Source of the DNA: a virus
Virus record (IMG/VR): IMGVR_UViG_3300042691_012617
Span: 104,427-168,426 of that record
Strand: one strand, 5' to 3'
Length of the DNA: 64,000 nt
A program made the position numbers and the translations under genes. The notes under the pieces were generated by a model. The model was not told the DNA's origin. It worked only from the letters and a program-made list of their open reading frames with translations, and searched no databases. Below are positions 3,953 through 61,865 of the stretch, one piece after another (the stretch's first letter is position 1; every line of letters begins with the position of its first letter).

Positions 3953-4213
3953 TTATCCGCCCTTTGCTTTCTTCCAAAGATCGGCATCAGCAGTCTTGCG
4001 GGTCTTGCCACCCACAATGAAAGAGTTCACACGGGCGAATGCCCATTGATGGCTTGTAGCACCAGGACGGTGTCCCCCCTTCCATGCAGCCATGCCCCTG
4101 TCATACACTTTCTTGAGGATGCCGTATGAAATGCCGCTAGCCTTTGCTTTTTTTTCCAAAGCGGCGATGCGAGCCTCTGTAATGTCTTGTTTCAGGGACT
4201 TGTAGTTTTTCAT
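3953..4213 (-). CDS. small basic DUF5824-like protein with capsid-targeting-like leader
   Basis: MKNYKSLKQDITEA..ILKKVYDRGMAAW..HRPGAT..QWAFARVNSF; ATGA overlap with upstream gene. Confidence 0.7.
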   Translation of the reverse strand: MKNYKSLKQDITEARIAALEKKAKASGISYGILKKVYDRGMAAWKGGHRPGATSHQWAFARVNSFIVGGKTRKTADADLWKKAKGG

Positions 4214-7200: not shown

Positions 7201-7815
7201 TTCCTTGAGGTTCAATCCTTTTCGGACATCGTTGTACATCTTCTTCTTGAGAGCCATGTCGGTTCCCGCGACACCTGTGGCAAACTTCTTGAAGTCGCCA
7301 TCAAATGCTGCTGCTCTCATCTTGGAGGCAGACATGCCCTGAACGCCCTGTGCATCATCGTCACGGGCTTCCCCTGCCTGTACGACTTCGAAGTTGTCGA
7401 ATGAGTACTTGCGCTTCTTTGGATCGCGCTCGGCGGTTCTGCCCTTGTACTTTGCGATGTTCTTGAAATTCTCGACCTGATCGCTGCCTGCAATCATCAC
7501 GATGTTCTTGTAGCCCAAGTCACAGACATGCAGAACCGCAGAGTATGGATCTCCCGCCTTGTTCAGAGGGAACTTCGCCTTGGGGAAGAACTTCTTCAAG
7601 TACTCCACCTTCTGCTTATGTGTCAGGGGATTCTTTTTGGGATCCTGTGAGGTAGAGGCAAAGATGAAGTGATCGGCATTCCGCTTGGATGCCTCGGAGA
7701 GAACTTTGTCAACAAGCACACCGTGACCGATTGTCGGTGGGTTCATGCGACCGAATGCAATGACTACCGTGTCTTTCTTCGGTGCTTCCGTGAGGTGCTG
7801 TGCAAAGTTCTTCAC
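4210..7815 (-). CDS. multidomain polyprotein: cytidylyltransferase-like + RimK ATP-grasp ligase + RimK-associated retropepsin-like protease + DUF5824-like + DUF3140-like
   Basis: FGRMNPPTIGH/SASKMR (HIGH-superfamily NTase); FPIIVKTLTGAEGIGV, QEFL, DFRTNIARG, IIEMNASPG (RimK); AKIDTGN..VLIG (aspartyl-protease-like); WQKLVNMS..SGRDSARAI..LKVWGYNP (DUF3140-like). Confidence 0.85.
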   Translation of the reverse strand: MKNFAQHLTEAPKKDTVVIAFGRMNPPTIGHGVLVDKVLSEASKRNADHFIFASTSQDPKKNPLTHKQKVEYLKKFFPKAKFPLNKAGDPYSAVLHVCDLGYKNIVMIAGSDQVENFKNIAKYKGRTAERDPKKRKYSFDNFEVVQAGEARDDDAQGVQGMSASKMRAAAFDGDFKKFATGVAGTDMALKKKMYNDVRKGLNLKEEYIFEAKDGEDKVTILALTSSEKDLSDTIEKMEAICKRRKIEFYAVKTSKAQVDISSVASKKIVIKNYDGEGKDCTINPSDTVAIVRGGVMNSDIGVAIMTILQNNGVFMVNERGGMELCANKLETAIALKKHELPHPRTAFVANEENIETAVKEVGGKFPIIVKTLTGAEGIGVSKIESMESLKSVLQTLWKYKAEVIIQEFLPDFKNDVRSIVLNGKIFACAKRDKAPKDFRTNIARGSKGGSFQLSDEEIKLVERAARVSKCYYVGIDHVINQGKPYIIEMNASPGSGNIYYRYYEDGKGKNNVKGEELVEDLVDYILNKAHWKLFSNLAVREEVKIDGAEYTAKIDTGNSGYNMIHAEDIKDNGDHTVTFKLPNGKKVTKKIVSRITVKSGIGEKKRLVVLMDIEFHGKKYPNIKFSLGDRSHMSTKVLIGLQFLSKTGMVVDPAEAIYPQPDINSKRKGDEEEEEELVEKTAVKDAAKAVAEIMKTPAVSAKVFTLVNKKGKIPPADFKREVMRVRDEVMLQAYKASGAGVTLSMFAQDNKIGKIIAKLFHKFMESGGIDIGVYATKLVSGAMSFLSMLGMGDEMEGNPLIEADVTKGKEFKTKTGKTKESPKDKGSGLPKKYVAGLSKKEAELRKKRLEKRKTMSDDDPQTWEFVNPDEKDIKTKPSKYSTLYKKLAKKGKLKALKNGYEHDDAMERLSKIDESDERNAIKLRMAIAYEERCLTRNMQEAAQLTRSYIDLLKEIRDSEMGSELPKTDINEDFDYLLVEVSPPSGPARRFSKKEKIKKEFQKRYGKRWKEVFYATAWKMHGEETDTTENWLNESKKINAVLQWTAMGKRGPLLVGSDEIVKTYKKDTPGERERLGEEKSEEEKSALYKEWQKLVNMSGKEIQSFLDSDEGKEAGLSRKEAGKAGAGGKKITSGRDSARAIIRMLDTPKEKWTPNDWKWAGKQVNFINRMKGAKGGMRDEKGRPTRKLLALKVWGYNPEKKS

Positions 7816-16063: not shown

Positions 16064-16891
16064 TCAAATGCCTAGAATTTTGTCAACCGCTTGCATCGTA
16101 TTTATGGATGGTCTGTATCCATAGGATCGAAGTTTGTCGTTGTTGAGACAAACATCTTTCACCTGTACAACCCGATGAAAATGCGGAGTTTCAATCGACA
16201 CCAACTCCGATGATGAGTTCAGTTTGTCCTTGCTATATCGTATGATGTCGCCAATCTTGCTTGGCTCAGAGTTGCTTATGTTTATGATCTCGCCCACGGG
16301 GGCGCGAGTCACGGATGTGTTGATAGCCCTACATGCATCTTCAACATCCATGAAATCTCTGATGTTGGAACCCCCGTCATAGAGTTTAACTGGCTCGTCT
16401 GCTCTCAAGAGGTTGATCATGTTTTGCAGAGCGTTCTTCTTGGGGGAAACACCCCTATCACCGCTGCCAATGATGTTGGTTAAGCGAAGTATTCGGTACT
16501 TCATCCCCATCGTTTCACAGTAGCAAATCAGCATCTGCTCTGCCGCTCTTTTTGTGATGGAATAGAATCCTCTAGGATCGCAGGGATCAGATTCCTTTGT
16601 GTCTAGAGTGCAGTTCATCCCATATACAAACCAAGAACTCACAAAATTGAAAGTGGCAGTTGGATACTTCTTTCGTGAAGATTCCAACACATCAATCAAC
16701 TTGCTGAGATTGGTGTCGATGTCCTTGTGCGGTTCTGTAAAGATGTGATAGTTGTGAGTCGTACTGATGAAGTACAAAATGCTGTCGGACAGCGGCTCGT
16801 CTTGATCCCGAGGAACCAACACAGTATCACCGCCATACATCTTCGCGTATGTTCCACCAACAAATCCTGTGCCACCATATACAGAGATCAT
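16064..16891 (-). CDS. NAD-dependent epimerase/reductase
   Basis: GGTGFVG, SSWFVYG, YSITK, RDFMDV. Confidence 0.85.
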   Translation of the reverse strand: MISVYGGTGFVGGTYAKMYGGDTVLVPRDQDEPLSDSILYFISTTHNYHIFTEPHKDIDTNLSKLIDVLESSRKKYPTATFNFVSSWFVYGMNCTLDTKESDPCDPRGFYSITKRAAEQMLICYCETMGMKYRILRLTNIIGSGDRGVSPKKNALQNMINLLRADEPVKLYDGGSNIRDFMDVEDACRAINTSVTRAPVGEIINISNSEPSKIGDIIRYSKDKLNSSSELVSIETPHFHRVVQVKDVCLNNDKLRSYGYRPSINTMQAVDKILGI

Positions 16892-16895
16892 GATG

Positions 16896-17780
16896 TTAGG
16901 CCCCAATCTTCATCTGTTCAATCCACCAAGAAGACTTCAACATATTCATATTCCATGTTGTCTTACTGAACTCTTCGTATGTCTTGTTTAGAAGGTCTTC
17001 AGTCACATCTTGGTACGAATTTACGAACAGAATCGGTAGATTTCTCTCTAGCGAGGAGTGAACATGATTCCTCTGAACAATAGGAATCACACCACAATAA
17101 AGAGACTCCCACATTCGATGTGTATCAACTCCATTACCACGCGGGCAAAGCATGAACTTGTGATCAAGAAGTTCTTCTTTGTATGACCCCAATTGACCAC
17201 CCTCTACGGGCTGACGAACAGTAGCCCACGGCTTGTCCGAGAACATTGGATACAGAGGCTCACGAACATCAGGTCGAGTCCATGTACGATGGTTCACATA
17301 AAGAAGACGGTTGCCTTTTGTTTTGGCAGCATCAAGCCCCCTCTTAGCGGTTAGACCCAACACACAGAAGTCATCCGCGATTCCTAGGGGGACACCGTGT
17401 GCCCTACTGCACTCATTATTACATCCCCACCATGTGACTGAAAGTTTTGACTGCATCGCGTCAAAGATAGAGTCGGTGATTGCGTAATCACTTTGTCCCG
17501 TCAGTAGAATGAAAGGAGTGCTACATCTGTTGTTGTTCAGGTACGCAACTAGATGTCGCAAGTAGTCGAACTTACAGTAGACTACGGATTTTGGAGTTAG
17601 GGCAGCAAAGTTAAACAGATTGATATAATCGCCGTGATGATTGCTTCTACGGGCAACTTGCTGTGCTGTTGGGGGAATTCGATATGCGCCATCCAATGCA
17701 GATATGGCAAACCAAAAATCACATTTGGATATTAGGTTTTGAGAACTTAGTACCTCTGTTGGCTCAATTTGCAGATTCAT
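16896..17780 (-). CDS. exostosin-like (GT47-like) glycosyltransferase
   Basis: FMLCPRGNGVDTHRMWESLYCGVIPIV. Confidence 0.7.
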   Translation of the reverse strand: MNLQIEPTEVLSSQNLISKCDFWFAISALDGAYRIPPTAQQVARRSNHHGDYINLFNFAALTPKSVVYCKFDYLRHLVAYLNNNRCSTPFILLTGQSDYAITDSIFDAMQSKLSVTWWGCNNECSRAHGVPLGIADDFCVLGLTAKRGLDAAKTKGNRLLYVNHRTWTRPDVREPLYPMFSDKPWATVRQPVEGGQLGSYKEELLDHKFMLCPRGNGVDTHRMWESLYCGVIPIVQRNHVHSSLERNLPILFVNSYQDVTEDLLNKTYEEFSKTTWNMNMLKSSWWIEQMKIGA

Positions 17781-38725: not shown

Positions 38726-39253
38726 TCAGTAACCCAACTTCTTTAGCGCAGCAATTGTCTCTGCCGCACTCTTGTGCTTGATCCCGATGCCACCACGGGC
38801 TTCCCATTCCTTGATGTTCTTTCCCCAATCATCGATGAGGATGTTGGGAACTCCCTTGGTGACAGCGTAGTCCTTCTTCTGATCCCGCAGGAGAACATGG
38901 CTCTTGGCGGGAAGGGGGCGAAGGTTCTTTTCGATCCACTTCATCTTGTCCTGCTTGGATTTTGACTGCCACGATGTCGTGTGAGCGGACAGGATGTTGG
39001 GATCGTGCTTGGAGATGTATGCCCACAACTGCTTGCCGTCCTTCATCCAAGGAAGTTCCGCAAACAGGTGCGGGTGTTCCTTGTCGATGCGAGGCTTGAG
39101 TGGATTGACATACGAGTCAAAGTTCTTGTTGTTCAGGTCTTTGATACCATAAAGGTTGGCGATGCCGCCGATGATGTCCACCAAGACACCGTCCATGTCG
39201 CAGTAGATCTCGCCCTTGACGGCTTCGTTGATGTGGTGGAGGAATGACTTCAT
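38726..39253 (-). CDS. HAD-family 5'(3')-nucleotidase-like phosphatase with capsid-targeting-like leader
   Basis: MKSFLHHINEA; IYCDMDGVLVD, ILIDD..NI.EW..GGIGI.H; CTAAATA at 39261-39267. Confidence 0.85.
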   Translation of the reverse strand: MKSFLHHINEAVKGEIYCDMDGVLVDIIGGIANLYGIKDLNNKNFDSYVNPLKPRIDKEHPHLFAELPWMKDGKQLWAYISKHDPNILSAHTTSWQSKSKQDKMKWIEKNLRPLPAKSHVLLRDQKKDYAVTKGVPNILIDDWGKNIKEWEARGGIGIKHKSAAETIAALKKLGY

Positions 39254-41598: not shown

Positions 41599-42524
41599 AC
41601 GGGCAACTTTGGATCAGGACTCATGAAATTGTTCTTCTTCATGGCGGTCATCATCACCATCTTCTTCATCTTGCCATCCCAATCAAGAGTGAACGGCATG
41701 TTGAGACTCTTACTCACATCAAGAATGATCGCCTTCCAATCGACGGGGTGATCCTTGATCTTCTGTGCATGCTTCTCATATGTCTTGCGGAAGGCATCCT
41801 GAATCTCAGGAATCGTGACCGTGCCACCATAGCCACGACTGCCGTTGATGCGTTCCCAAAAGTGTCGGGTGAAGGCGATGTCCAACTTTGCCGATGCGAA
41901 CATGGCATCAAGGACAGACTCAAGTCGCTTCAGGTCATTCCATGCCACGGGCGTGTGCGCCTGCGGCTGCACATACGAGTGCCCCCGCGCATACCCGTGA
42001 CCCGTGGTCGGGCGACCCGTGACGATGCCTTCGCTGACATCCTCTGTGAAGAACGACATGAGTTTGGGGGAGACGCGAACCTTGCGCTTCCCGATCTTGC
42101 GGGTGCTGCTGATGAAGGTGGTCTCTTCCAATTTCTCGTCCAAGTCCCACGGACCATAGTGTCCCGTGCTTCTCAACTTGCGAGTCATCTCAATGTAGGT
42201 GTATGTCTTGTATGCACCCTTCTCGTTCGGTTTGATCTTTCCGATTGCGTAGTAGACACGCTTGTCAATTCGGATGTCATTGCCATTCGATTGATCGATC
42301 ACCATGTCACCGTCCTCCACCCATGCGTGGGGAAATCGTAGCCCTGCCACAGATCCCTGCCCATACACCAAGGCATGGACGAGGACGGGCTTGCCTGAGG
42401 TGGACTTGATCGGTTTGCCGAAGAAGGCTGAGTTGAAGCGCATCATGAGATTTACTGCGGCTGTCATACAGTCGCCATCTCCATCGTGTCGCTCCGTTAG
42501 ATATTGATTGAAAGACTTGGTCAT
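41595..42524 (-). CDS. two-domain hypothetical protein with capsid-targeting-like leader
   Basis: MTKSFNQYLTE; GDC..HAWVE..ID (Cys-His-Asp, transglutaminase-like) then FTRHFWERIN domain. Confidence 0.7.
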   Translation of the reverse strand: MTKSFNQYLTERHDGDGDCMTAAVNLMMRFNSAFFGKPIKSTSGKPVLVHALVYGQGSVAGLRFPHAWVEDGDMVIDQSNGNDIRIDKRVYYAIGKIKPNEKGAYKTYTYIEMTRKLRSTGHYGPWDLDEKLEETTFISSTRKIGKRKVRVSPKLMSFFTEDVSEGIVTGRPTTGHGYARGHSYVQPQAHTPVAWNDLKRLESVLDAMFASAKLDIAFTRHFWERINGSRGYGGTVTIPEIQDAFRKTYEKHAQKIKDHPVDWKAIILDVSKSLNMPFTLDWDGKMKKMVMMTAMKKNNFMSPDPKLPV

Positions 42525-42823
42525 CTATTCCTCGACTGCCAATCAGGAGTGATTGGAATACTCTTATCGCTCACGGCTCTCTTGCTCTGCGCTCCTGCCG
42601 CCTTGAGCCATTGCAGGACATGTGTTCTTCGCGTGGTCGCTTCGACTGCATTGGTGACTTCCCAAGGCCCCATTTGATCCTTGTCATCTGCCCAAGTTTC
42701 AACATCGAAATCTGTGGGAACTTGGTCAACTGCAAAGTTTGCACCGTCATAGCCTACTGCCCTTGTGTAGACCATGTTGGCGGTGCTATTGCTCTCATGG
42801 ATGTACTGCTTGAAGGACTTCAT
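42521..42823 (-). CDS. hypothetical protein with capsid-targeting-like leader
   Basis: MKSFKQYIHES; CTAAATA at 42830-42836. Confidence 0.7.
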   Translation of the reverse strand: MKSFKQYIHESNSTANMVYTRAVGYDGANFAVDQVPTDFDVETWADDKDQMGPWEVTNAVEATTRRTHVLQWLKAAGAQSKRAVSDKSIPITPDWQSRNR

Positions 42824-43103: not shown

Positions 43104-43886
43104 TCAGAACTTGATGCCGACTCCGAAGGTGACGATTGCGTCAGCCTCAGGGGTGGCGACATCCTGCGACACAGGGACAAGCACCCCTGCATTCAGATCA
43201 ATGTTCGACGCGACATGCCAGTTGGCGACAGGACCAAGGAACAGTTGGTTCTCACCGCTGTTCACATAGTAGACCTGATCGAACTGTACGCCAAGGTCGA
43301 ACGAATTCCACTTGTAGGAAAGGTCGGTGCCGAGCGTAACGACATCGGAGTCTGTCTTGGCACCGAGCCAAGTGATATACGACTCCCCGCCGTCGAAACG
43401 ATATTCGGCAGTCTGCTTGAAGTCGAAGACCCACAACTTGCAGTCGAACGCCGCGTTGATGTACGGGTTGACATTCGCGTTACGGAAATACTCCGAACCC
43501 ACAGGCAGATACACACCGCCGCCAAGAGCCAAATCCCACTTACCGATGACATCGTTGTTTCCTCCGATGAAGTCCCACGAACCGCCGAGGCTGATGTTGC
43601 TCACGGTTGTGTTGTCATCCTGCGAGTACACAGGAATGTTGAGATCAAGGCTGATGTCCTTGGTGAGGTCAACGCCGAGAGTCGAGTTGAAGGCGAACAG
43701 AGTGCTGCCCGAACCCTTGAAGGTGTGGATGTCAACGGATTCGCTGAGGTACCACTTCAGGTCAGACACCGCGCTGATTGCGGGTTCTGCCTGAGGAGCC
43801 GCCGTCTGTGCCTGAGCAACAGCAGCGGTGGAGATGAGAGCAGCAGCAGCCACACTCGTTCCGATCTTACTAGTCATGTTTGTCAT
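43104..43886 (-). CDS. outer-membrane beta-barrel protein
   Basis: Signal peptide (AAAALISTAAVA), alternating amphipathic strands, C-terminal VTFGVGIKF beta-signal. Confidence 0.8.
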   Translation of the reverse strand: MTNMTSKIGTSVAAAALISTAAVAQAQTAAPQAEPAISAVSDLKWYLSESVDIHTFKGSGSTLFAFNSTLGVDLTKDISLDLNIPVYSQDDNTTVSNISLGGSWDFIGGNNDVIGKWDLALGGGVYLPVGSEYFRNANVNPYINAAFDCKLWVFDFKQTAEYRFDGGESYITWLGAKTDSDVVTLGTDLSYKWNSFDLGVQFDQVYYVNSGENQLFLGPVANWHVASNIDLNAGVLVPVSQDVATPEADAIVTFGVGIKF

Positions 43887-43988
43887 TCCTATCTTTCTCC
43901 TTTGCACCGCCCGTTCATTCGGGAGGTGCGGATACTTATACCTGATGATGGTGAACCTGAGCGCAATCTTAACCAACTCCAATCAAGT

Positions 43989-44022
43989 GAAAAGAGAAAC
44001 CCCCACCACAGAGCGGCAGGGG
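43989..44022 (-). terminator. rho-independent terminator
   Basis: CCCCTGCC..GGTGGGGG then TTTCTCTTTT. Confidence 0.6.
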
Positions 44023-44060
44023 CTTATCTTTCTTTCGGACTTGACCGCTTTCTTTTCTGC

Positions 44061-47000
44061 TTAGGTCAGAACTCTGTCCTTGATCAATGCTTCGATGGTG
44101 GTCGCATCGACATTTCTGACAGCCGTTCTGTACCCGATGGCTTGGTGAACGAGATCCACTTTGCCCTTCGCGTTGGTGGCTACCTTATAGTTCTCACCCT
44201 TCACCACGCTGCCGCTCATCATACTCTTGCTCTGAAGCGCACGGAGTCTTTGACCGACATAGACCATCTTCGATCCTTGTACCGCGACACGATCCTGCTC
44301 TTCGATCACTTCACCATCGATCTCTGTGATCTCAGATACGGTTCCCTTATCTACTAGTTTCTTCCAAATCTCCCATGCCTTCCCCTGCTGCGTTTTGGCT
44401 CTTGTGTACATGCTCTTCAAGTTTTTATAGGATGGAACTGCTCCTTCAAACGGAGGAACCGCTCCTGTTGCCTTGTACCAAGTCCTCAGATCATTCTCAC
44501 TTGGAACACCCTTCGCCTCTGTGACATCGATTTCTACACTCTCTGCCTTCACATACTTGACATGGTTGCGGATCGCCCACTTCTCCATCACGGGCTTGCC
44601 GTCCGCACCTTCATCAACGGCGATGTAGCAGACGGTTCCCTTGACATTGGCTGATCTCCATTGCTCCTTGCGGTCCCCACCATAGGAGACGCAGACTTCG
44701 TGCGGGAGACCATGGCTCTTGCCCCATGAGTCGGTTGAGTTGCGGTACTCAAACCGCTTCTTATAAGTTGCCTCCGTGAAGGCACCGACGATTCCCTTCG
44801 TGTCCAAGGGAGCGTATGCTTCTGTGAATGATTCGAACACAGCCTTGATCTTAGAGTTGTTGCGATCCTCAGGCTTGAGGAATTCACGAACTCCCTTAAG
44901 AACATGTGCAACCATGTTCTTCGGTTCTCCACGCAGGAAGTCGGTTAGCCCGTCGATCATTTCCCACACAGGGCCTGAGTCACCGTTCGGAACTTTCATA
45001 GTTCCATTGAGACCACCCTTCTTATATGCCTTCTCTAGGTCATCGATCAAACCATCGGCATCCGTCTTGGTCAGGGAGTCTGTTCCCTTCCACCACACCT
45101 CGCTGATGTCGAATGATTCGACCATCGACATGCCGTGCTTGTCCATCCACATGGCGACAGCCTTGAGCAACTGACGAGGAGCGAAACGCATTTCCTTGTC
45201 ACCGACGAAGCGTGTCGTGCTGTCGGGGAAGGCAGTCAGAACCAACTTTGGATTACCCTGCTGCTTCGTGTTGAAGAAGACCTTATGTGGTGCAATCGAT
45301 GTGCGGGTGTTCTTCTTGGCGGGTTCTTCGATGAAGCCTACCTCGCCCTTGTTTTGAACGCTGATGAGCCAACCCTTGAGACTGCCCTCCACGAACGAAG
45401 TGAAGCGATACTTGCCGATGACCTGTTGGGCTTCGGTCAGTTCCTCGCCGTCCTCTTCGACGCTCTCGCCCCAACTCTTGTTGACGAAGGCAGCGGCTTC
45501 TCTCTCGCTATTCATATCCTTGACCCACTTGCCGCTCATCGTATAGATTCCGATGATTCTCTTGGAGTCACGCTTGCCAGGACCCGTGAGATATTTTACC
45601 TTTGCCTCTTCGATATCTACTTCTTCCTTCTGCACCTTCTGCTTGGGAACGAGTACGCTTGCAGGCTCACCGACATCGACCACATAGCCACCGCCATGCT
45701 GCCGTGCCTTGTCCGTGCCGCCGTCATCGTAACGGACGATCTTGCCGCTGACCATCTTGCCCTTATGCGGAACCTTGACCTTGTCGCCCGCCTTGAACTG
45801 TTCAGCGACTTCGACTTCTTCCTTGATGGCGACCACGGTGACCTCGCCGCCCGACCAACTTCCCTTGGAGCCGACCTTGGCTTCAGGCTTCTTGGTGAGT
45901 CCCTTGGTGAGAGAAGCGAAGTCGCTAGGAGCATACACCTTGATCGACATGCTCTCGGGACTCTTCTCCTTGGTGACAACCAACACGCTGCCCGTGGGCT
46001 TGCCCTCAAGAGACTTCTTGGCAGCACGAAGAGAACTGACCATGGAGGATCCGCCGATAGGATCGTCCTTGACCATCTTCTCGGCACCCGCCATCATGCG
46101 GACACCTTCTTCAACATTTTCAACTTCTTCCTTCACTCCTGCGTTTCTCTTCGCAGCGGCGATGGCTTCGTCCCTAGTGGCATATCTGCCGATCACCGTT
46201 CCCTTGCGACCATCGGGGAAGCGGACACTACCTTGGCTGTAACTTAGTTGGTACAACACGAACTTGCCGCTATCTCGGTCGAGGCGAAACCCATAGGTGC
46301 CGATGTTCAAGTTCTCCTCGTTGACCTCGACCTCTTCCTTAGTTCCAAGATATTTGACTTCGTTCTTGTGCTTGGCGATGTCATATCTCGGATTGCTACC
46401 GACATTCACCATCAGAGCGTCTGAGCCAACCTTGACCACGACTCCACGACGAGGCTTGCCGTTGACCATGGTCTGCACGGCATCACCAACACGGAACTGA
46501 TGTGTATCGGTTGCCTCTGCAACCTCGACGCTCTCACCGTGGAATGTGTTGAACATCATCTCTAGTGCAGCGATGTCCGACTCCCGTGACTTGTCGCCCA
46601 TGGCAGGAGCGACCTTGTTCTTGTCTAGGAGTTGCTTGAGTTCCTTGCGAACGGGATCGGTCTTGGACAATCCCTTCATCTCTGCTGCCTTGAGTTTGGC
46701 ACCGTACTTGCGACTGATCTCCGCAACCACAGCCTTGGGCAGACCTTCGACCCAATCCTCCATGGCTGCTTTGACTGCGCCCTCTGTGATGTACTCTTCG
46801 TGAAGCGATTCAAGCATGAGGAACAGATGCGACTCTTTGTCCAAGCCCTCTGTCTTGAGCATGCTGAAGTCAACGGTGACGATGGCATTGGTTCCCGCAG
46901 GAGCCTTGACCTTGTCGAACGATGTGTTGATCGACGCGGGTGAACCCGTGGCTTGACGCTTGGTCAGACCGTTGAAGGTGATGATGAAGTCCCGTGCCTT

Positions 47001-47264
47001 CGCAGCGTTAGCGAAGTACAGCATCATCTTCTTGTCGCTGACTTCCATCTTGTTGATGCCCTTTTCGAAACCCATCTTTTGGATGAGTTGACGCATCTTG
47101 GCTTCGAACTGCTGCTTGCTGTAGCCGAACATCGCGCCGCCCCCGCCTGTGGCGAACAGGGGTGCTTCGTTGATCGCCTTCGCCATCTGCTCGTTCTTAG
47201 AGGTGGCGGCACCGCCGAACTTGGCGGCTTCTGCGAGGATTCGTCTTTGGAATTCGTTCATCAT
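44061..47264 (-). CDS. large modular polyprotein with repeated acidic E-x-V-E-x-x-E linkers
   Basis: 1067 aa from ATG 47264 (AGGAG RBS, CTAAATA at 47290-47296); KOW/SH3-like modules FRVGDAV, FKAGDKV. Confidence 0.8.
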   Translation of the reverse strand: MMNEFQRRILAEAAKFGGAATSKNEQMAKAINEAPLFATGGGGAMFGYSKQQFEAKMRQLIQKMGFEKGINKMEVSDKKMMLYFANAAKARDFIITFNGLTKRQATGSPASINTSFDKVKAPAGTNAIVTVDFSMLKTEGLDKESHLFLMLESLHEEYITEGAVKAAMEDWVEGLPKAVVAEISRKYGAKLKAAEMKGLSKTDPVRKELKQLLDKNKVAPAMGDKSRESDIAALEMMFNTFHGESVEVAEATDTHQFRVGDAVQTMVNGKPRRGVVVKVGSDALMVNVGSNPRYDIAKHKNEVKYLGTKEEVEVNEENLNIGTYGFRLDRDSGKFVLYQLSYSQGSVRFPDGRKGTVIGRYATRDEAIAAAKRNAGVKEEVENVEEGVRMMAGAEKMVKDDPIGGSSMVSSLRAAKKSLEGKPTGSVLVVTKEKSPESMSIKVYAPSDFASLTKGLTKKPEAKVGSKGSWSGGEVTVVAIKEEVEVAEQFKAGDKVKVPHKGKMVSGKIVRYDDGGTDKARQHGGGYVVDVGEPASVLVPKQKVQKEEVDIEEAKVKYLTGPGKRDSKRIIGIYTMSGKWVKDMNSEREAAAFVNKSWGESVEEDGEELTEAQQVIGKYRFTSFVEGSLKGWLISVQNKGEVGFIEEPAKKNTRTSIAPHKVFFNTKQQGNPKLVLTAFPDSTTRFVGDKEMRFAPRQLLKAVAMWMDKHGMSMVESFDISEVWWKGTDSLTKTDADGLIDDLEKAYKKGGLNGTMKVPNGDSGPVWEMIDGLTDFLRGEPKNMVAHVLKGVREFLKPEDRNNSKIKAVFESFTEAYAPLDTKGIVGAFTEATYKKRFEYRNSTDSWGKSHGLPHEVCVSYGGDRKEQWRSANVKGTVCYIAVDEGADGKPVMEKWAIRNHVKYVKAESVEIDVTEAKGVPSENDLRTWYKATGAVPPFEGAVPSYKNLKSMYTRAKTQQGKAWEIWKKLVDKGTVSEITEIDGEVIEEQDRVAVQGSKMVYVGQRLRALQSKSMMSGSVVKGENYKVATNAKGKVDLVHQAIGYRTAVRNVDATTIEALIKDRVLT

Positions 47265-47309
47265 AGGGTTAATGCTCCTGAGTAAGGAGTATTTAGCCTT
47301 TGACAAACG

Positions 47310-47425
47310 GGGAAAGAGAAAGAGTGGGGAACCTGTTCAACCACCCACGGCTGCTAATCGTGCAACCTTGCTCCTGTCTTAGTACCCCCGCTAGTGGGGC
47401 GCAGGACGGCTTTACTAGACGGATG
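47310..47425 (-). ncRNA. candidate small structured RNA
   Basis: Promoter TTGACA-N16-TATAGT (47428-47455), nested hairpins, terminator-like GTGGG..CCCAC-TCTTTCTCTTT; no credible ORF. Confidence 0.45.
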
Positions 47426-47476
47426 TAACTATACAGCGACGAAAGTTGCTGTCAAGAACCTTGTCGAAAGATTCTT

Positions 47477-47806
47477 TTACTTGGCTCTACCGCCAAGGAA
47501 CTTCGTGTGGATAGGATCGCCCTTCAGATGAATGCCGACGATCTCATATCCGTTTGTTTTGAGTCCCGCAACATACGCATTTAAGTGTCGATTAAATTCG
47601 TACTTGTTGTCGGTCGTCTTCAGTTGCACGGGTGGGAACACCGCATTGACCGTGGTCTTCTCGCCCGTCTTTGGAAGAACGATTCGATAACGAACGACAG
47701 CCCTGATGTCATACTCATCATCAGGTTCGTATGCGTTCGATTTGTACTTGAAAACCTTGAACGAGTCGAATGTCGATTCGCTGATGTAGTCCTTGTATGA
47801 CTTCAT
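47477..47806 (-). CDS. hypothetical protein with capsid-targeting-like leader
   Basis: MKSYKDYISES. Confidence 0.7.
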   Translation of the reverse strand: MKSYKDYISESTFDSFKVFKYKSNAYEPDDEYDIRAVVRYRIVLPKTGEKTTVNAVFPPVQLKTTDNKYEFNRHLNAYVAGLKTNGYEIVGIHLKGDPIHTKFLGGRAK

Positions 47807-48702: not shown

Positions 48703-49770
48703 TCATACCCGTGGCTTGCCTGTCGGAGGATCTGTGTTGATTGTCCCCGAGGTAACAACGGCTTGTTGAAAAGTTGGAATATTGTATGACCCCCATGCTG
48801 CCAGTACGCGAGAGAGATCGATCCCATCAACCTTGCCGTCCCCATCCATGTCCTCAAAGATAGGTTTCGTCTGTCCCCACCGAGCAAGGATTTGGCTCAG
48901 GTCTGCCCCATCGACCACACCGTCCTGATTGATGTCTTCCTTCTTGGCAGACAACTTCACATGCTGCAACTCATATCCGAAGGGAGCAAGTGCTGCAACG
49001 AGGTTGGCAAAGGTAGCCTTGTTGATCGACTGACCACCATACTGCAATCCAACGAAGACGGTCTCTCCATATGCATCCCGTACCATCACGGGAGAACCCG
49101 AGTCGCCCACGAAGATCGCAATTGTTCCATTCGGATACGCACCATCATTGATGCCGTCCAAGGACGGTGTCAAGTTGTATCCACCTGTATCGTTCGTAGT
49201 TGTATTCAGATATGCATTCTTAAAGAGTGTCTTGTAGATCTTACCGTTGCTGTCCTTCGTCCACAGCGAAGTTCCCGTGGGGATGTAAAGCGGGTCAGCG
49301 ATCCTGTTGTAGATCTTTAGGTCTGCATTTGGGAACTCTCTGTCGAACTCAAGCAGGGTCAGGTCGGGACCGATGTTGAGATAAACACGGGTCACCTTGT
49401 TCTCATAGAACGCACCGCCCTTGCCGAGAAAACGAATGCCACCCGTATTGATATTTGGGTCTGCGTGTCCACCACGGAAGTGTTGACAGATCAATGCATG
49501 GCGGGGCGAGATCAGTACCGCACCGTAGGTGCATTGGTTCCAAAAGTTCACGCTGTTTCGATCATACGGAATCGTAAACATACCGCTGTTCGAAATGTTG
49601 TTGCAGAAGTATCGATGGAGGGCGCGTGTGCCCGACCAATCGATGTACTCATATGTTTGACATTCCGAATTGTAACCATCGGGCGCAATACCCCCGCTCG
49701 TTGGTGTGGCTTGTGTTGGGTAATGGTATACATCATGGATCGCGGGTGTGTAATAGCGCAGGACTGCCAT
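48703..49770 (-). CDS. trypsin-like serine protease with C-terminal dockerin/EF-hand-like repeats
   Basis: ISPRHALICQH, DLTLL, GDSGSP; DINQDGVVDGADLSQILARWG and DMDGDGKVDGIDLSRVLAAWG; CTAAATA at 49797-49803. Confidence 0.8.
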   Translation of the reverse strand: MAVLRYYTPAIHDVYHYPTQATPTSGGIAPDGYNSECQTYEYIDWSGTRALHRYFCNNISNSGMFTIPYDRNSVNFWNQCTYGAVLISPRHALICQHFRGGHADPNINTGGIRFLGKGGAFYENKVTRVYLNIGPDLTLLEFDREFPNADLKIYNRIADPLYIPTGTSLWTKDSNGKIYKTLFKNAYLNTTTNDTGGYNLTPSLDGINDGAYPNGTIAIFVGDSGSPVMVRDAYGETVFVGLQYGGQSINKATFANLVAALAPFGYELQHVKLSAKKEDINQDGVVDGADLSQILARWGQTKPIFEDMDGDGKVDGIDLSRVLAAWGSYNIPTFQQAVVTSGTINTDPPTGKPRV

Positions 49771-56493: not shown

Positions 56494-57899
56494 CACCATT
56501 CCTGCACCTCTTCCTTTGGATCGAACACCTTCTTGCCGATCATGAGTCCGCTGTAGAGAAGGTTGTATGTGTACTTCGACTTCGTGGGATTGCCGCTAGG
56601 CTTGAACTTGTTCTTCGCCTTGTTGAACTCCTGCACGGACGGGATCTTGCCTTGGCTCATCGCGGTCTCATACTCTTTTATGATTCCATCGATGTCCTGA
56701 CGGAGCGACACGACACGATTGACCAACTTTGCCTTCCTCTTCGGATCCTCAATCAGGCTCATGCTTGTGCTGTACGCGCCCCATGTGAGCAACGCCATGA
56801 CAAGAGTTCCCATCTCGTCCATCTTCACCCCGCCAAGCCCGATCTTCTTCAGGTGATCGGGGATCCACGGTTCGGCAAGATTGTCCTTGACCTTTCGCTG
56901 AAGATCAGCGACAACGATCTCTGCGACAGCCTTGCACTTTGCGGTCTTGGTCAGGCTGTTGAAGGAAGCCTTGTCCCGCATCGCATTCAATGCAGCGCGT
57001 TCATTGGTCGCCGCGATCAGGAAGGAAGCGAACGCATCCTCAATCTCTGATGCCGCGCCTTGGAAGTATGCGTTCCATTCCGCATCGCTTGTGTAGTAAG
57101 CCTTGCGGGTCTCAGGTGTGCTGTTCGGATCCCATGATGCTTTGATGCCCTTCTCAATGTTCCCTGGTCTGTCGCTGCTCGACTTGTATCGGATGTCATC
57201 AAGGAAGTGGATGTACTCATGGATGAAGATGTCTCGGAGGAACATCAGTTCCTGCTCAAGTCCCTCAAGCCACTTGTTCATCGGACGAACCATTGCTTGC
57301 TTCGACTTGCCGCTGAACTTCGCCTTCATCGCATCGCGCAGGGCTTGGTGCAGCGGAGTGTCCTTGCCCAACGACAGGTGGCTGAGGTTGTAGAACTCAA
57401 GTGTGGGATTGACCTTGGTCTGCTTGCCTGAGATGTAGACTCCCTTGAAAGACATCGCCCCGCTTCCGCGTGGATAACCGCGAAGCGTGATCAGCATCTT
57501 CACCATGTTGCTGCTCGGTGTCATCTTGTCGAAGTCGCTAGGCTTGATGCTCGGTGGGAGGAAGACCTGTGCGGCATCCCTGATGGTGTATGCAAGAGTC
57601 ATCTGCCCCTGCGTCAGGACTGACATGAGCATCTTCTTGTCATCGAACTGCTTCCGCATCGAATCGGTGAGCGAGTTCGCCAAGTCATTGATGGCGAACT
57701 CATAAGATACGATGTCCTTGGTAGATGGATCTGTTCCCTTGCCACCCGATGTGTGCTTGTTGATGAAGTCATTGACACCTTTGGTCGCCATGACCATGAG
57801 GTTCTTCGTGAACCTGTCGAACGACTTGGCTGCGGCATCGCGCATCGAACGGTCAAGTTCGCGCTCAAGCAGCAGGGCAAGTTCGTGGTATGACTTCAC
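56493..57899 (-). CDS. HExxH zinc-metalloprotease-like protein with capsid-targeting-like leader
   Basis: MKSYHELALLLE; IFIHEYIHFLD..YYTSDAEWNAY. Confidence 0.7.
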   Translation of the reverse strand: MKSYHELALLLERELDRSMRDAAAKSFDRFTKNLMVMATKGVNDFINKHTSGGKGTDPSTKDIVSYEFAINDLANSLTDSMRKQFDDKKMLMSVLTQGQMTLAYTIRDAAQVFLPPSIKPSDFDKMTPSSNMVKMLITLRGYPRGSGAMSFKGVYISGKQTKVNPTLEFYNLSHLSLGKDTPLHQALRDAMKAKFSGKSKQAMVRPMNKWLEGLEQELMFLRDIFIHEYIHFLDDIRYKSSSDRPGNIEKGIKASWDPNSTPETRKAYYTSDAEWNAYFQGAASEIEDAFASFLIAATNERAALNAMRDKASFNSLTKTAKCKAVAEIVVADLQRKVKDNLAEPWIPDHLKKIGLGGVKMDEMGTLVMALLTWGAYSTSMSLIEDPKRKAKLVNRVVSLRQDIDGIIKEYETAMSQGKIPSVQEFNKAKNKFKPSGNPTKSKYTYNLLYSGLMIGKKVFDPKEEVQEW

Positions 57900-58426
57900 A
57901 GTCCCGATCCCTTCGGCAGAAAGATGATGAGTGCCTTGGGTTCGATGCCATGTATGAACGCCATGTCCATGCGGGTGTTCCCTGCGAGGATGCGATCCCG
58001 ATAGCCCAATGCGATCTCCTTCATCTCCTTCTCGGCATGATAGTCGGAAGACTCCGCTGTGGGGCGAACGATGATCGGCATATCCATGGGCTTGCCTGAC
58101 AGCATGGCTTCCTTCATGGCGTTGAGGGTGTCCTCGTTGCGGTACTGCGGGTACGAGCGATAGGTCTTAATGAGGTTCAGCAGTTCCTTCATGTTCCTCG
58201 TATGAGACCTGTTGGCGATGTAGTAGTCGTGCCCCTTGGTGATCGTCCGCACGATGCCTTCCTTCGCCGCCTTGAGGAATGACTCCACGGTGGGGAACAC
58301 ATCCTTGTCCAACTCATGGACGAGGTGCTTCTTGTATTCGATCTCATACTCCTGCTTGAGCATGGCGACCTTGGGGCGAACCCAATTGCCCTTCGCTTCG
58401 GTGATGTGCTGTGAGAAAGACTTCAT
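57896..58426 (-). CDS. ParB/Srx-like protein with capsid-targeting-like leader
   Basis: MKSFSQHITEA; MPIIV..ILAGNTR. Confidence 0.6.
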   Translation of the reverse strand: MKSFSQHITEAKGNWVRPKVAMLKQEYEIEYKKHLVHELDKDVFPTVESFLKAAKEGIVRTITKGHDYYIANRSHTRNMKELLNLIKTYRSYPQYRNEDTLNAMKEAMLSGKPMDMPIIVRPTAESSDYHAEKEMKEIALGYRDRILAGNTRMDMAFIHGIEPKALIIFLPKGSGL

Positions 58427-58716
58427 CTCTTCTTCCGTCCTTGGCAATGCGCCCGTTGTGAGAATCCCTTCGGGTTGTTGCAGTTGATCGACTTCTTGTA
58501 CTTCGCAGTCCAATCCTCACCGATCTTGTACTTCTTGAGGATGGCGTTGCGCTTGGCTTGCAGTTCCTTCTGCCGTGGAGAACTCGGCATCGTCTTCAGG
58601 ATGAGTATCGTCAGACGGTTCGCCTCCTTGCGATCCTCGGGCGACATGACAGCCCAAGGATCCTTGAAGTCCTTGAAGTCATGCGAACCTTCCATGAATT
58701 GCAGGAACGATTTCAT
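58423..58716 (-). CDS. small protein with capsid-targeting-like leader and Cys-containing C-terminal module
   Basis: MKSFLQFMEG; EDWTAKYKKSINCNNPKGFSQRAHCQGRKK. Confidence 0.72.
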   Translation of the reverse strand: MKSFLQFMEGSHDFKDFKDPWAVMSPEDRKEANRLTILILKTMPSSPRQKELQAKRNAILKKYKIGEDWTAKYKKSINCNNPKGFSQRAHCQGRKKR

Positions 58717-59792
58717 GTGAAGTCCTTCACCAATTGCTTGAACACCTTCGTCTTGGCAAAGGCATCTGCGCCCTTCACACCAAGGCGGCTGATGGCGCGG
58801 TTATAGACATACATCCTTGCATTGTCACCCATGTTTCGTGTTGATGAGTTCAAGACAATGATGTCCTCTATGCTGCTCACCTTTACATAGACCGTGACAG
58901 GGAGCGGGGCATTGCCGACACGGATGACCTCTCGCTCAGGCTTCGCTCCCTTGCCGTATCCCGACACTTGCTTGACCACATCGGGACTCAGGAGAGTGTC
59001 GCTCCTCTTGAGGTTCACTTCGAACACCACGGCGATTGGATTCTCGACACTAGACATGTTGGTGTCGCTGAAGTCCTCTGCGGTGCGCCACTCGTCAGAC
59101 CATGACTGCGCCTCGTAGCGGCTCTTGTAGGTTCCCTTGGCGACAAGCCATTCGTTCTTGCCGATCTTCTTGACCTCTCCCGTGAAGTCATACTTGGAGA
59201 CCACGGCGGTGGTTCTTGACACGCCACGGTACGCCTTGCCGCTCCATGCCGCCCACGGGGCACGGCTCTTGCAAGCAACGATCTGAGCGAAGATGTTCGT
59301 CATCTTCATCTTGCGACCGCCCTGTGATTCGAACCACTCATCGAACGCTTCCTTGATCTCCTGCAACTTGGTGATCCACTTGGCAGACGCATCAGGGATC
59401 TCGCCCTTGATCAAATCGATGAACCTGTTGGGCTTGGGGTCGCTGAGGAGGTCGCAGATGGTGTAGGGATTGGCGAGTACCTTCTTCTCGTCGGCTTCCG
59501 CCTTGCGGTAGATCGCATCGGTCTTCAACTCCCGTTTGATCTCCTTGCCTATGTCCTTGAGGTGCGGGATGACCACCTTGAAGTTGGAGTTCTGATAGGA
59601 GGGAGAAGTGTAGTCGTTCAACGACAGCATCTTGATCCTGTGCTTCAGGTTCTTGATCGTCTGCTTGGAAAGATTGGGTGTCTTGATAGCCTTCTTCAGG
59701 GCTTCGATGGCATCCTTGCGAAGACGCTCTGCCTCAATGGCAGCGGGCTTCGGGCCCTTGGCTTCGGTGATGTGGGCAAGGAAGGATTGCAT
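58713..59792 (-). CDS. ADP-ribosyltransferase-like protein (R-S-E clade) with capsid-targeting-like leader
   Basis: MQSFLAHITEA; AYRGV, QSWS..A..F, PEREV; CTAAATA at 59798-59804. Confidence 0.68.
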   Translation of the reverse strand: MQSFLAHITEAKGPKPAAIEAERLRKDAIEALKKAIKTPNLSKQTIKNLKHRIKMLSLNDYTSPSYQNSNFKVVIPHLKDIGKEIKRELKTDAIYRKAEADEKKVLANPYTICDLLSDPKPNRFIDLIKGEIPDASAKWITKLQEIKEAFDEWFESQGGRKMKMTNIFAQIVACKSRAPWAAWSGKAYRGVSRTTAVVSKYDFTGEVKKIGKNEWLVAKGTYKSRYEAQSWSDEWRTAEDFSDTNMSSVENPIAVVFEVNLKRSDTLLSPDVVKQVSGYGKGAKPEREVIRVGNAPLPVTVYVKVSSIEDIIVLNSSTRNMGDNARMYVYNRAISRLGVKGADAFAKTKVFKQLVKDFT

Positions 59793-61076: not shown

Positions 61077-61865
61077 TCACTTCTGATACTTCTTCAGTTC
61101 TCTGATGACCGTCGAAAGGTCTTTCATGATCTCCATGTTGCCATGCTTCGAAGGACTCATTGTTTTCTTATGGACTGCCTCAAGGCTATAGATCAGACCC
61201 TGAAGGAAGTCACGCTGCTGTGCATGCTTCTGCCTGAGGGAACCCACGATCTGTAGAAGATAGGAATGAACATCGAACTTTCCCACCCATGCGACATTCG
61301 TCGTTGCCTTCTGAATGTTCGTCGCCATGTCATCAAGGTCAGTCCAATACCTTCCGAGATCCGCTGCCTCGCTTACAAGAGTCTCTTCCTTTCTGATGGA
61401 AGGAAACCCTAGAGAAGACAGTAGATCCGAAGCAGCCTTCTTGTTGGCTTCTTCTGCCGCCTTGAGAACTTCATTCTTGTCCAACGAGGCTACCTTGCCC
61501 ACGACACGAAGACCGCTCCCACCTCTTCCGACTGCATAGAGGGTGTATCCCTTGCCATCAATCGCCTTGCGTACTTGGAATGAAGAACCCTTCATCATGA
61601 ACTTCTTGTCGAGCGGAACATCGGACTCGTCCAGTTCAACCTCTTCCTTTTGCCACGGCTGTCCGATGTTCTTGGGGGTGAGGGTGACGAACACCTTGCC
61701 CATCTTGAGACCGCCATGCTCCTTTGCCTTCTTGAGGCATTGCTGCTTGCTGCCACGATAGATGATCTTGTTGTCCACGACGAGGGCATACCCGACCTTG
61801 GTGAGTTCTGCCTCGCTGAGGGTCTTGCGCTGAATGCCGTCCCAATTCTCGTTGAATGACTTCAT
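61077..61865 (-). CDS. three-module polyprotein with capsid-targeting-like leader
   Basis: MKSFNE..LSEA; linkers KEEVELDES and KEETLVSEA; AGGAG RBS; CTAAATA at 61883-61889. Confidence 0.72.
   Translation of the reverse strand: MKSFNENWDGIQRKTLSEAELTKVGYALVVDNKIIYRGSKQQCLKKAKEHGGLKMGKVFVTLTPKNIGQPWQKEEVELDESDVPLDKKFMMKGSSFQVRKAIDGKGYTLYAVGRGGSGLRVVGKVASLDKNEVLKAAEEANKKAASDLLSSLGFPSIRKEETLVSEAADLGRYWTDLDDMATNIQKATTNVAWVGKFDVHSYLLQIVGSLRQKHAQQRDFLQGLIYSLEAVHKKTMSPSKHGNMEIMKDLSTVIRELKKYQK

Follow-up and report, generated by a model that had tools for sequence, protein, structure and literature searches.

The element described here is the gene of a putative polyprotein, located at 44061..47264 on the minus strand of a 64,000-nucleotide stretch of phage DNA (the window), which corresponds to bases 104427-168426 of IMG/VR record IMGVR_UViG_3300042691_012617. 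Its product is a string of small modules separated by acidic linkers, which are recombination points at the DNA level and probably cleavage sites of a prohead protease at the protein level. The phage genome has a length of 168,426 bp and is estimated to be approximately 93% complete. An earlier note on this DNA gave the correct coordinates for the open reading frame (ORF) but read it as a plus-strand gene. The ORF runs from an ATG at 47264 to a stop codon at 44063-44061 and encodes 1067 amino acids (117 kDa). The ATG is preceded at 10 nt by a Shine-Dalgarno sequence (AGGAG, 47275-47279, minus strand) and at 32 nt by a late-promoter-like motif (CTAAATA, 47290..47296, minus strand), and a terminator-like hairpin of 13 pairs with a T-run lies directly 3' of the stop codon (43997..44025, minus strand). 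A TTG at 47306 was considered as the start and rejected, as the late-promoter motif would lie inside that extension and the AGGAG is correctly placed for the ATG. Antisense ORFs within the gene (e.g. 45135-46247, plus strand, 370 aa) are taken to be by-products of its Glu/Lys-rich coding strand.

All thirteen linkers that the earlier note had quoted are present, with the P1 glutamate (the residue before the predicted cut, marked below by a slash) at residues 12, 33, 161, 250, 316, 386, 488, 553, 611, 722, 815, 916 and 989. The parts that they delimit, all on the minus strand, begin with two leader peptides. The first (47229..47264; aa 1-12, MMNEFQRRILAE/A) is a putative capsid-targeting propeptide, modelled at a predicted local distance difference test score (pLDDT) below 50; residues Q6, E12, A13, K15 and G17 are invariant among 32 relatives, and divergent leader classes retain [IL]-x-E at the same position. 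The second (47166..47228; aa 13-33) ends AINE/A, with E33 invariant in the same relatives, and BLAST segments of shuffled relatives stop at aa 32 and resume at aa 31. The first module (46782..47165; aa 34-161, ending YITE/G) belongs to the largest cluster of family segments (cluster 0, 95 segments); it gives an alpha/beta model with a pLDDT of approximately 70-80 and no clear fold match (Z of 5.8 or less). It is followed by a helical module found at many positions in relatives (46515..46781; aa 162-250, ending GESVEVAE/A), a module starting FRVGDAVQ that is missing from two near-identical orthologues (46317..46514; aa 251-316, ending KEEVEVNE/E) and a module that in relatives P0142 and P0143 comes directly after a MKSFNENWDG leader (46107..46316; aa 317-386, ending KEEVENVEE/G). 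An alpha/beta module, absent from P0003 and P0005 (45801..46106; aa 387-488, ending KEEVEVAE/Q), precedes a Tudor/SH3-like beta-barrel module, the most widespread of all (45606..45800; aa 489-553, ending KEEVDIEE/A). The remaining modules are located at 45432..45605 (aa 554-611, ending GESVEEDGEELTE/A), 45099..45431 (aa 612-722, ending VESFDISE/V; first after the leader in P0057, P0060 and P0151), 44820..45098 (aa 723-815, ending FESFTE/A), 44517..44819 (aa 816-916, ending AESVEIDVTE/A; phrog_23785) and 44298..44516 (aa 917-989, ending VSEITEIDGEVIEE/Q). The last module (44064..44297; aa 990-1067, pI 10.2) is C-terminal in every relative carrying it, with matches to aa 988-1066 reaching the subject C-terminus in P0008, P0065, P0066, P0070-72, P0085, P0086 and P0097.

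The modules, 58-128 aa in length, fall into different clusters (architecture 0-67-5-7-1-6-2-12-3-28) and are not repeats of one another, as had been claimed from the sequence. Their description as basic does not hold uniformly: the predicted pieces (6.5 to 14 kDa), with their acidic tails, range from pI 5.4 to 10.2.

The linkers share the core [KGAV]E[ES][VIFL][EDT], which occurs nine times in the polyprotein; no other ORF of the genome has more than one copy, counted over coding-strand ORFs of at least 60 aa in all 168 kb. Across 105 long relatives, EEVE (194 occurrences) and ESVE (164) are the two most frequent 4-mers. Aligned contexts give the consensus K-E-E-V-E-[VIL]-x-E followed by A, E, Q or G; there is also a longer form, G-E-S-V-E-E-D-G-E-x-[L/I]-x-E. 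A hydrophobic-x-Glu triplet is found within 12 aa after 93% of the linker cores of the family, compared with 27% of random windows. About one third of linkers also start with such a triplet (e.g. AIKE/EVEVAE/Q), and cleavage at this second site could excise an acidic peptide. When the residues just before the conserved module start were collected across relatives for each of the 12 modules, P1 was Glu and P3 was Ile, Leu or Val (or Met) in nearly all distinct upstream contexts. P1 Glu precedes the Tudor-like module in 60 of 71 contexts and module 816-916 in 33 of 35, while all 17 contexts of module 162-250 have P1 Glu together with L, I, V or M at P3. The rule is kept at non-canonical junctions (PIAE/A, ILRE/S, PINE/G, DLRE/G and QMAE/A), and after a canonical linker, a long linker or an N-terminal leader (..PQPIAE/AFKNGD). 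The main argument of the analysis is that such varied junctions have just the hydrophobic-x-Glu in common, and therefore the site itself is likely to be under selection. The linker codons within the gene differ at synonymous positions, from which it follows that the protein sequence, and not the DNA alone, appears to be selected. The polyprotein sites ELTE/A, SFTE/A, DVTE/A and ILAE/A can be compared with FLTE/AE, the site in gp23 of Escherichia phage T4. In an alignment of relatives (A2, columns ~180-235), an extra mini-module of ~45 aa bounded by SIEE/A and DIEE/S was observed between the first two modules of P0125-P0131, P0136 and P0167, a further in-frame insertion at protease-type sites.

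Approximately 225 relatives were identified among 5.8 billion proteins; all are metagenomic, typically matching small portions of the query at high identity. No cultured phage was found to encode a homologue of the entire protein. The family is rare: of 1.84 billion representatives, a profile of aa 1-250 retrieved only 123 clusters. BLAST analysis placed the same modules at different orders and positions in relatives. With segments restricted to an identity of 55% or more, 131 of the 196 internal ends were located within 8 aa of predicted sites (20.7% expected, p 6e-44), as were 51 of 86 unique endpoints (p 7e-15). Cutting the 105 long proteins at their linker cores produced 622 segments in 127 clusters and 90 distinct architectures, with 16 left and 22 right neighbour types for the Tudor-like module. 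Some modules are position-bound, the segment of leader and first module being usually N-terminal.

Two contigs from other metagenomes (L016 and L017) share 96-99% identity with the window across the gene and its surroundings, and the proteins of these three near-identical phages differ by four whole-module insertions or deletions (indels). Residues 251-316 occur in the present protein only, with the junction at a GTCGAGGT microhomology inside two linkers, and so do residues 387-480, with the junction at a AAGGAAGAAGT microhomology. The Tudor-like module is missing from P0005, which possesses an extra module of ~150 aa at a GGCGAGAGCGTCGA microhomology near module 554-611. All of the indel junctions are situated inside linker codons at shared strings of 8-14 nt (GTCGAGGT, AAGGAAGAAGT twice, and GGCGAGAGCGTCGA). 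The linkers are for this reason real recombination points, with each event restoring both the frame and the protease site. The idea that they could serve as swap points is thus shown directly in the DNA, and that of autonomous modules exchanged at linkers agrees with the breakpoints, the clusters and the indels; orthologues are clearly not colinear, and modular exchange is present among them. A distant relative, P0106 (1146 aa; gene 8001-11441 of L015, a 61-kb JGI 3300035670 contig), has a HicA toxin domain at its start, is made up of ~13 or more segments bounded by linkers, and adjoins an 815-aa Zeta-toxin/AAA_33 protein, with phage neighbours that differ from those seen here. The polyprotein design may therefore, given P0106, extend beyond one lineage.

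Two segments with colinear relatives were modelled with AlphaFold2, aa 1-250 (32 sequences) and aa 378-561 (11 sequences). The model of aa 1-250 (mean pLDDT 62) possesses an alpha/beta domain at 45-138 and a helical domain at 146-240, with pLDDT below 50 at the leader (1-44) and at the linker 241-250. In that of aa 378-561 (mean pLDDT 73), an alpha/beta domain (pLDDT 78-88) is accompanied by a small beta barrel, and the score falls below 50 at 378-384, 484-488 (VEVAE) and 549-561. In both models the dips in confidence fall on predicted cut sites; the first half of the linker (..AIKEEV) is modelled as the end of the last strand of the preceding module and the second half as disordered. For these two segments the prediction of discrete small domains, as opposed to one integrated structure, appears to be upheld. 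A fold search with aa 1-250 gave a best Z of 5.8, which is not interpretable. The barrel at aa 489-548 aligned with 6wau at Z 8.0 (rmsd, root-mean-square deviation, 2.1; 55 residues aligned; VIA-align), a score for which the tool warns of common arrangements, and has many Tudor/chromo/KOW-type matches at Z 8.0-7.0 without a Pfam match. Of the two modules guessed to be KOW/SH3-like, the guess appears sound as a fold class for this one, which is modelled as a small beta barrel with Tudor the best match.

Few of the modules could be identified by homology. A Pfam scan of the polyprotein found no family at E up to 0.01, and no peptidase family was detected with Pfam or PHROGs. The PHROGs scan matched one module only, aa 816-916 (phrog_23785), which was also the sole match in a tblastn search of cultured phages; it is a stand-alone gene of ~93 aa in Sinorhizobium phages phiM12, phiM7 and phiN3 and in Limnohabitans phage DC31. 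Family modules in part equal small stand-alone phage gene families of 50-129 aa, and relatives carry LPD29 (phrog_10415), three other small PHROG families and a HicA toxin. The neighbourhood of the gene in a related contig contains AcrVA2-like, SAM-lyase and WYL genes, which is suggestive, and no more, of a counter-defence region.

The gene had been predicted to be expressed late, and the motif evidence is in agreement, CTAAATA being common to the polyprotein gene and the major capsid gene. In T4 the late promoter is TATAAATA, and CTAAATA is read here as the counterpart in this lineage. The heptamer occurs in 36 copies on the coding strand and four on the other, mostly 11-51 nt upstream of ATGs, including that of the major capsid gene and those of many virion-region ORFs; it was not found before the polymerase, UvsX or helicase genes. 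It is kept upstream of polyprotein orthologues in contigs L004, L016 and L017. The upstream intergenic region (47297-47455, minus strand) also holds a near-consensus sigma-70 promoter and a block, GCCGTGGGTGGTTG..GGTTCCCCAC.CTTTC, that is kept in the divergent relative L004 and may represent a small RNA or leader; Rfam gave no credible match in this region, and its RNA fold is no stabler than shuffles (z-score 0.71, not significant).

The genome encodes a T4-type DNA polymerase (best identity about 50%, to cyanomyovirus polymerases), UvsX and a DnaB-type helicase. The cognate prohead protease postulated in the earlier note has a candidate in a gp21-type gene at genome positions 16320-16964, which matches Peptidase_S77 (PF03420, E 1.3e-33) and aligns to T4 gp21 (5jbl) at E 4e-20, with the GELGHP and SSRGVGS motifs in register. 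This gene adjoins ORFs in the T4 order for portal, scaffold and capsid, with the capsid gene confirmed as Gp23; the putative scaffold protein, at the gp22 position between the protease and capsid genes, is Glu-rich. T4 gp23 is cut at ..FLTE/AEIGG, from a precursor of 521 aa to a mature protein of 456 aa. The capsid protein of the present phage would be cut at YLRE/S, which is located ~29 residues before the conserved LVRRAMPNL (32 residues in T4). Judged by its T4-type replication genes and T4-like head block, the genome is a distant, uncultured member of the T4 superfamily. In megablast the polyprotein gene had no match among 50,697 phage records. A search for the prohead protease in five IMG/VR contigs of relatives found none, which is uninformative as these contigs are 19-65% complete; the capsid gene is likewise absent from all four of these incomplete contigs that were searched for it.

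Several neighbouring genes encode N-termini resembling the capsid-targeting sequence (CTS) of T4, MKTYQEFIAE (PMC8442874). Residues 4 and 7 of this sequence are of importance in targeting and residues 8 and 10 in processing; in the leaders of the window these positions are aromatic, aromatic or His, Ile and Glu. An Asp at P1 prevents processing in T4 and leaves targeting intact (PMC9026906). The N-terminal pattern M[KQ]S[FY]xx[HY]IxE followed by A or S is found in five ORFs of the window (starts 39253, 42823, 47806, 58426 and 59792). They include the upstream neighbour of the polyprotein gene (47477..47806, minus strand; 109 aa, MKSYKDYISE/S) and ORFs at 38726-39253, 42521-42823, 57896-58426 and 58713-59792, also on the minus strand; the ORF starting at 39253 resembles a HAD-type enzyme (DMDGVL motif). 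A relaxed version of the pattern was found in 13 coding-strand ORFs, compared with one on the other strand, which suggests a large set of late, capsid-packaged proteins. A second small polyprotein is encoded at 61077..61865 (minus strand; 262 aa), with the leader MKSFNENWDG..TLSE/A, internal linkers KEEVELDE/S and KEETLVSE/A, and a copy of CTAAATA 24 nt upstream; it has modules in common with the large family (89% identity to P0074:699-753).

Other ORFs in the window were also noted. The gene downstream of the polyprotein gene (43104-43982, minus strand; ~260-290 aa) encodes a signal-peptide-like N-terminus and a C-terminal ..GVGIKF, and by eye its product looks like an outer-membrane beta-barrel, with no Pfam or PHROG match. 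A similar gene (248-260 aa) occupies the downstream position in L004, L016 and L017. The ORF at 48703-49770 (minus strand) encodes a 355-aa late protein that is kept in relatives, with CTAAATA 33 nt upstream and a C-terminal dockerin type I domain (E 4.5e-7). The 1201-aa ORF at 4210-7815 (minus strand) combines cytidylyltransferase-like and RimK/S6-glutaminyl-transferase-like domains.

The interpretation favoured here, and considered probable, is that the gene encodes a late, capsid-targeted polyprotein which the prohead protease cuts into approximately twelve proteins that are injected with the DNA. We infer cleavage by this protease, packaging in the head, injection and an effector function of the modules; cleavage and packaging are read from the motif logic and by analogy with T4. 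The product would be a 'beads-on-a-string' cargo polyprotein made late in infection by a T4-superfamily phage, and its two-part N-terminal propeptide, with predicted cuts behind E12 and E33, probably directs it to the core of the prohead, as happens with T4 internal proteins. Every acidic linker ends in a hydrophobic-x-Glu site, and the gp21-type protease would then cleave behind its Glu, which would free approximately 12 independently folded proteins of 6.5-14 kDa, similar in size to mature T4 internal proteins. Retained in the head, these would be delivered into the cell together with the DNA, where they would presumably serve as early host-takeover or anti-defence factors. The near-identical linker codons (8-14 nt) act as recombination points for the in-frame insertion, deletion and reordering of whole modules, giving each phage strain its own set of putative cargo. 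T4 packages CTS-fused proteins up to the size of beta-galactosidase (PMC9026906), for which reason packaging of a 117-kDa precursor appears feasible. A further proposal, to which slightly less than an even chance is given, is that the gene is a protein-level cassette array in which one and the same short linker would serve the prohead protease as a cleavage site in the protein and, in the DNA, provide a microhomology for recombination.

A number of observations weigh against this interpretation. A sigma-70-like promoter (TTGACA-16-TATAGT, 11 of 12 matches) lies 160 nt upstream of the gene, and there may be early, non-capsid transcription from it in addition to that from the late motif. The leader MMNEFQRRILAE resembles the T4 CTS only loosely and is unlike the MKSF..I.E leaders of neighbouring genes. 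The pieces with their acidic tails are near neutral (pI 5.4-10.2), whereas T4 internal proteins are strongly basic. Hydrophobic-x-Glu is a short motif (24 +/- 4 triplets in the shuffled protein, 34 in the real one), and the conservation at P1 and P3 could partly reflect shared descent of the linkers. None of the polyprotein's own modules has a known function.

Of the other explanations, the one taken most seriously, although thought unlikely, is an uncleaved 'polyvalent' multidomain protein, in which the modules act on one chain and the linkers are flexible spacers and recombination sites, the protein being either cytoplasmic or packaged whole like the virion RNA polymerase of phage N4. Relatives contain LPD29, a domain defined in polyvalent proteins, and some polyvalent proteins are delivered unprocessed (Iyer et al. 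2017, PMC5512222); the recombination role of the linkers, which has been shown directly, could alone maintain their sequence. However, dissimilar junctions keep hydrophobic-x-Glu right before the module, for which a role as spacer or recombination site has no need, and the N-terminal leaders end in the same site. The near-free order of modules (90 architectures in 105 proteins) also argues against cooperation between neighbours on one chain.

Two explanations accept cleavage and dispense with injected cargo. Processing in the cytoplasm by a phage or other protease, with the polyprotein as a means of obtaining many small proteins economically from a single late (or early) transcript, would fit the sigma-70-like promoter, and in cultured phages one module has homologues that are ordinary small genes located where genes are densely packed. 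It is considered rather improbable: T4-type prohead proteases act within assembled proheads (PMC5694885), the late motif is present, the gene is located among genes with CTS-like leaders, and a conserved two-site N-terminal propeptide is not needed for cytoplasmic processing. Least credible, with very little probability assigned to it, is a scaffold- or core-like prohead filler that is chopped and expelled like gp22, gp67 and gp68 of T4, without a function after injection. The many cleavage sites and acidic stretches would suit such a filler, and the putative scaffold protein is also Glu-rich; but the modules are modelled as folded globular domains, they are highly diverse and strain-variable, and some of them equal stand-alone phage genes or the HicA toxin, a diversity pattern that suggests selection on cargo and not a structural role.

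If the pieces of the capsid-targeted polyprotein are indeed cut free and injected, a dozen pre-made proteins would be delivered at DNA entry, before phage gene expression, the moment at which anti-defence and takeover factors matter most. The family comprises at least 127 module types of 50-130 aa, nearly all without an assigned function, which form a catalogue of candidate first-strike effectors. In-frame exchange at linker microhomologies, visible between phages that are 96-99% identical, could explain the turnover of this arsenal. Should the cassette array be true as well, any small linker-flanked ORF would be insertable in frame into the capsid-delivery polyprotein, populations of one phage species would carry different and rapidly reshuffled sets of injected effectors, and the gene would be a functional analogue of the integron for co-injected proteins. 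The combination of leader and linker also points to a natural design rule by which T4-like capsids could be loaded with several foreign proteins.

T4 internal proteins with a CTS, polyvalent proteins and the multi-site processing of head proteins in phiKZ-like phages are already known; no description was found, among open-access papers and preprints, of a string of exchangeable mini-proteins whose trans-protease sites double as recombination sites. The polyproteins that eukaryotic RNA viruses encode, where a viral protease cleaves one translation product at conserved sites between domains, are comparable by analogy only, and have a fixed order of replication and structural proteins and an embedded protease, without cassette-like shuffling. 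In phiKZ-like phages (phiKZ, 201phi2-1 and SPN3US), head proteins are cut after Glu, often at multiple sites, by a gp21-related protease (PMC5694885, PMC9026906), but these cuts remove propeptides from single large proteins at A/S/G-x-E motifs, and no string of exchangeable mini-domains or conserved linker has been described for them. The internal proteins of T4 (IPI, IPII, IPIII and Alt) are close to the present system in several respects: a T4-superfamily phage with a gp21-type protease, probable late expression, a putative short propeptide ending in I/L-x-Glu, the size range of the predicted products and a strain-variable locus. The T4 CTS is furthermore very similar to the leaders of the genes neighbouring the polyprotein. 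In T4, however, each internal protein has its own gene and its own CTS and is cut once, whereas here approximately 12 units share one leader, with internal sites between them; this leader has two parts and exceeds the T4 CTS in length, the pieces lack a strongly basic character, and no sequence homology to the T4 internal proteins was seen. Polyvalent proteins (PMC5512222) likewise combine many unrelated domains (2-15 per polypeptide) in a combinatorial manner and are predicted to travel with the DNA; LPD29 is common to them and to relatives of the polyprotein, and the paper describing them itself likens them to viral polyproteins (PMC5512222). None of the domains of the polyvalent network (LPDs, MPTase, ART, ParB, methylase) was found in the polyprotein by Pfam at E up to 0.01. 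The domains of polyvalent proteins are larger and mostly enzymatic, and in the cases for which release has been proposed it is by an embedded peptidase (MPTase), a frequent feature of these proteins but not an obligatory one. The polyprotein described here possesses modules of 58-128 aa, mostly without annotation and with no peptidase domain found, and the prohead protease would release them in trans by cutting at a conserved linker, which is also where recombination takes place.

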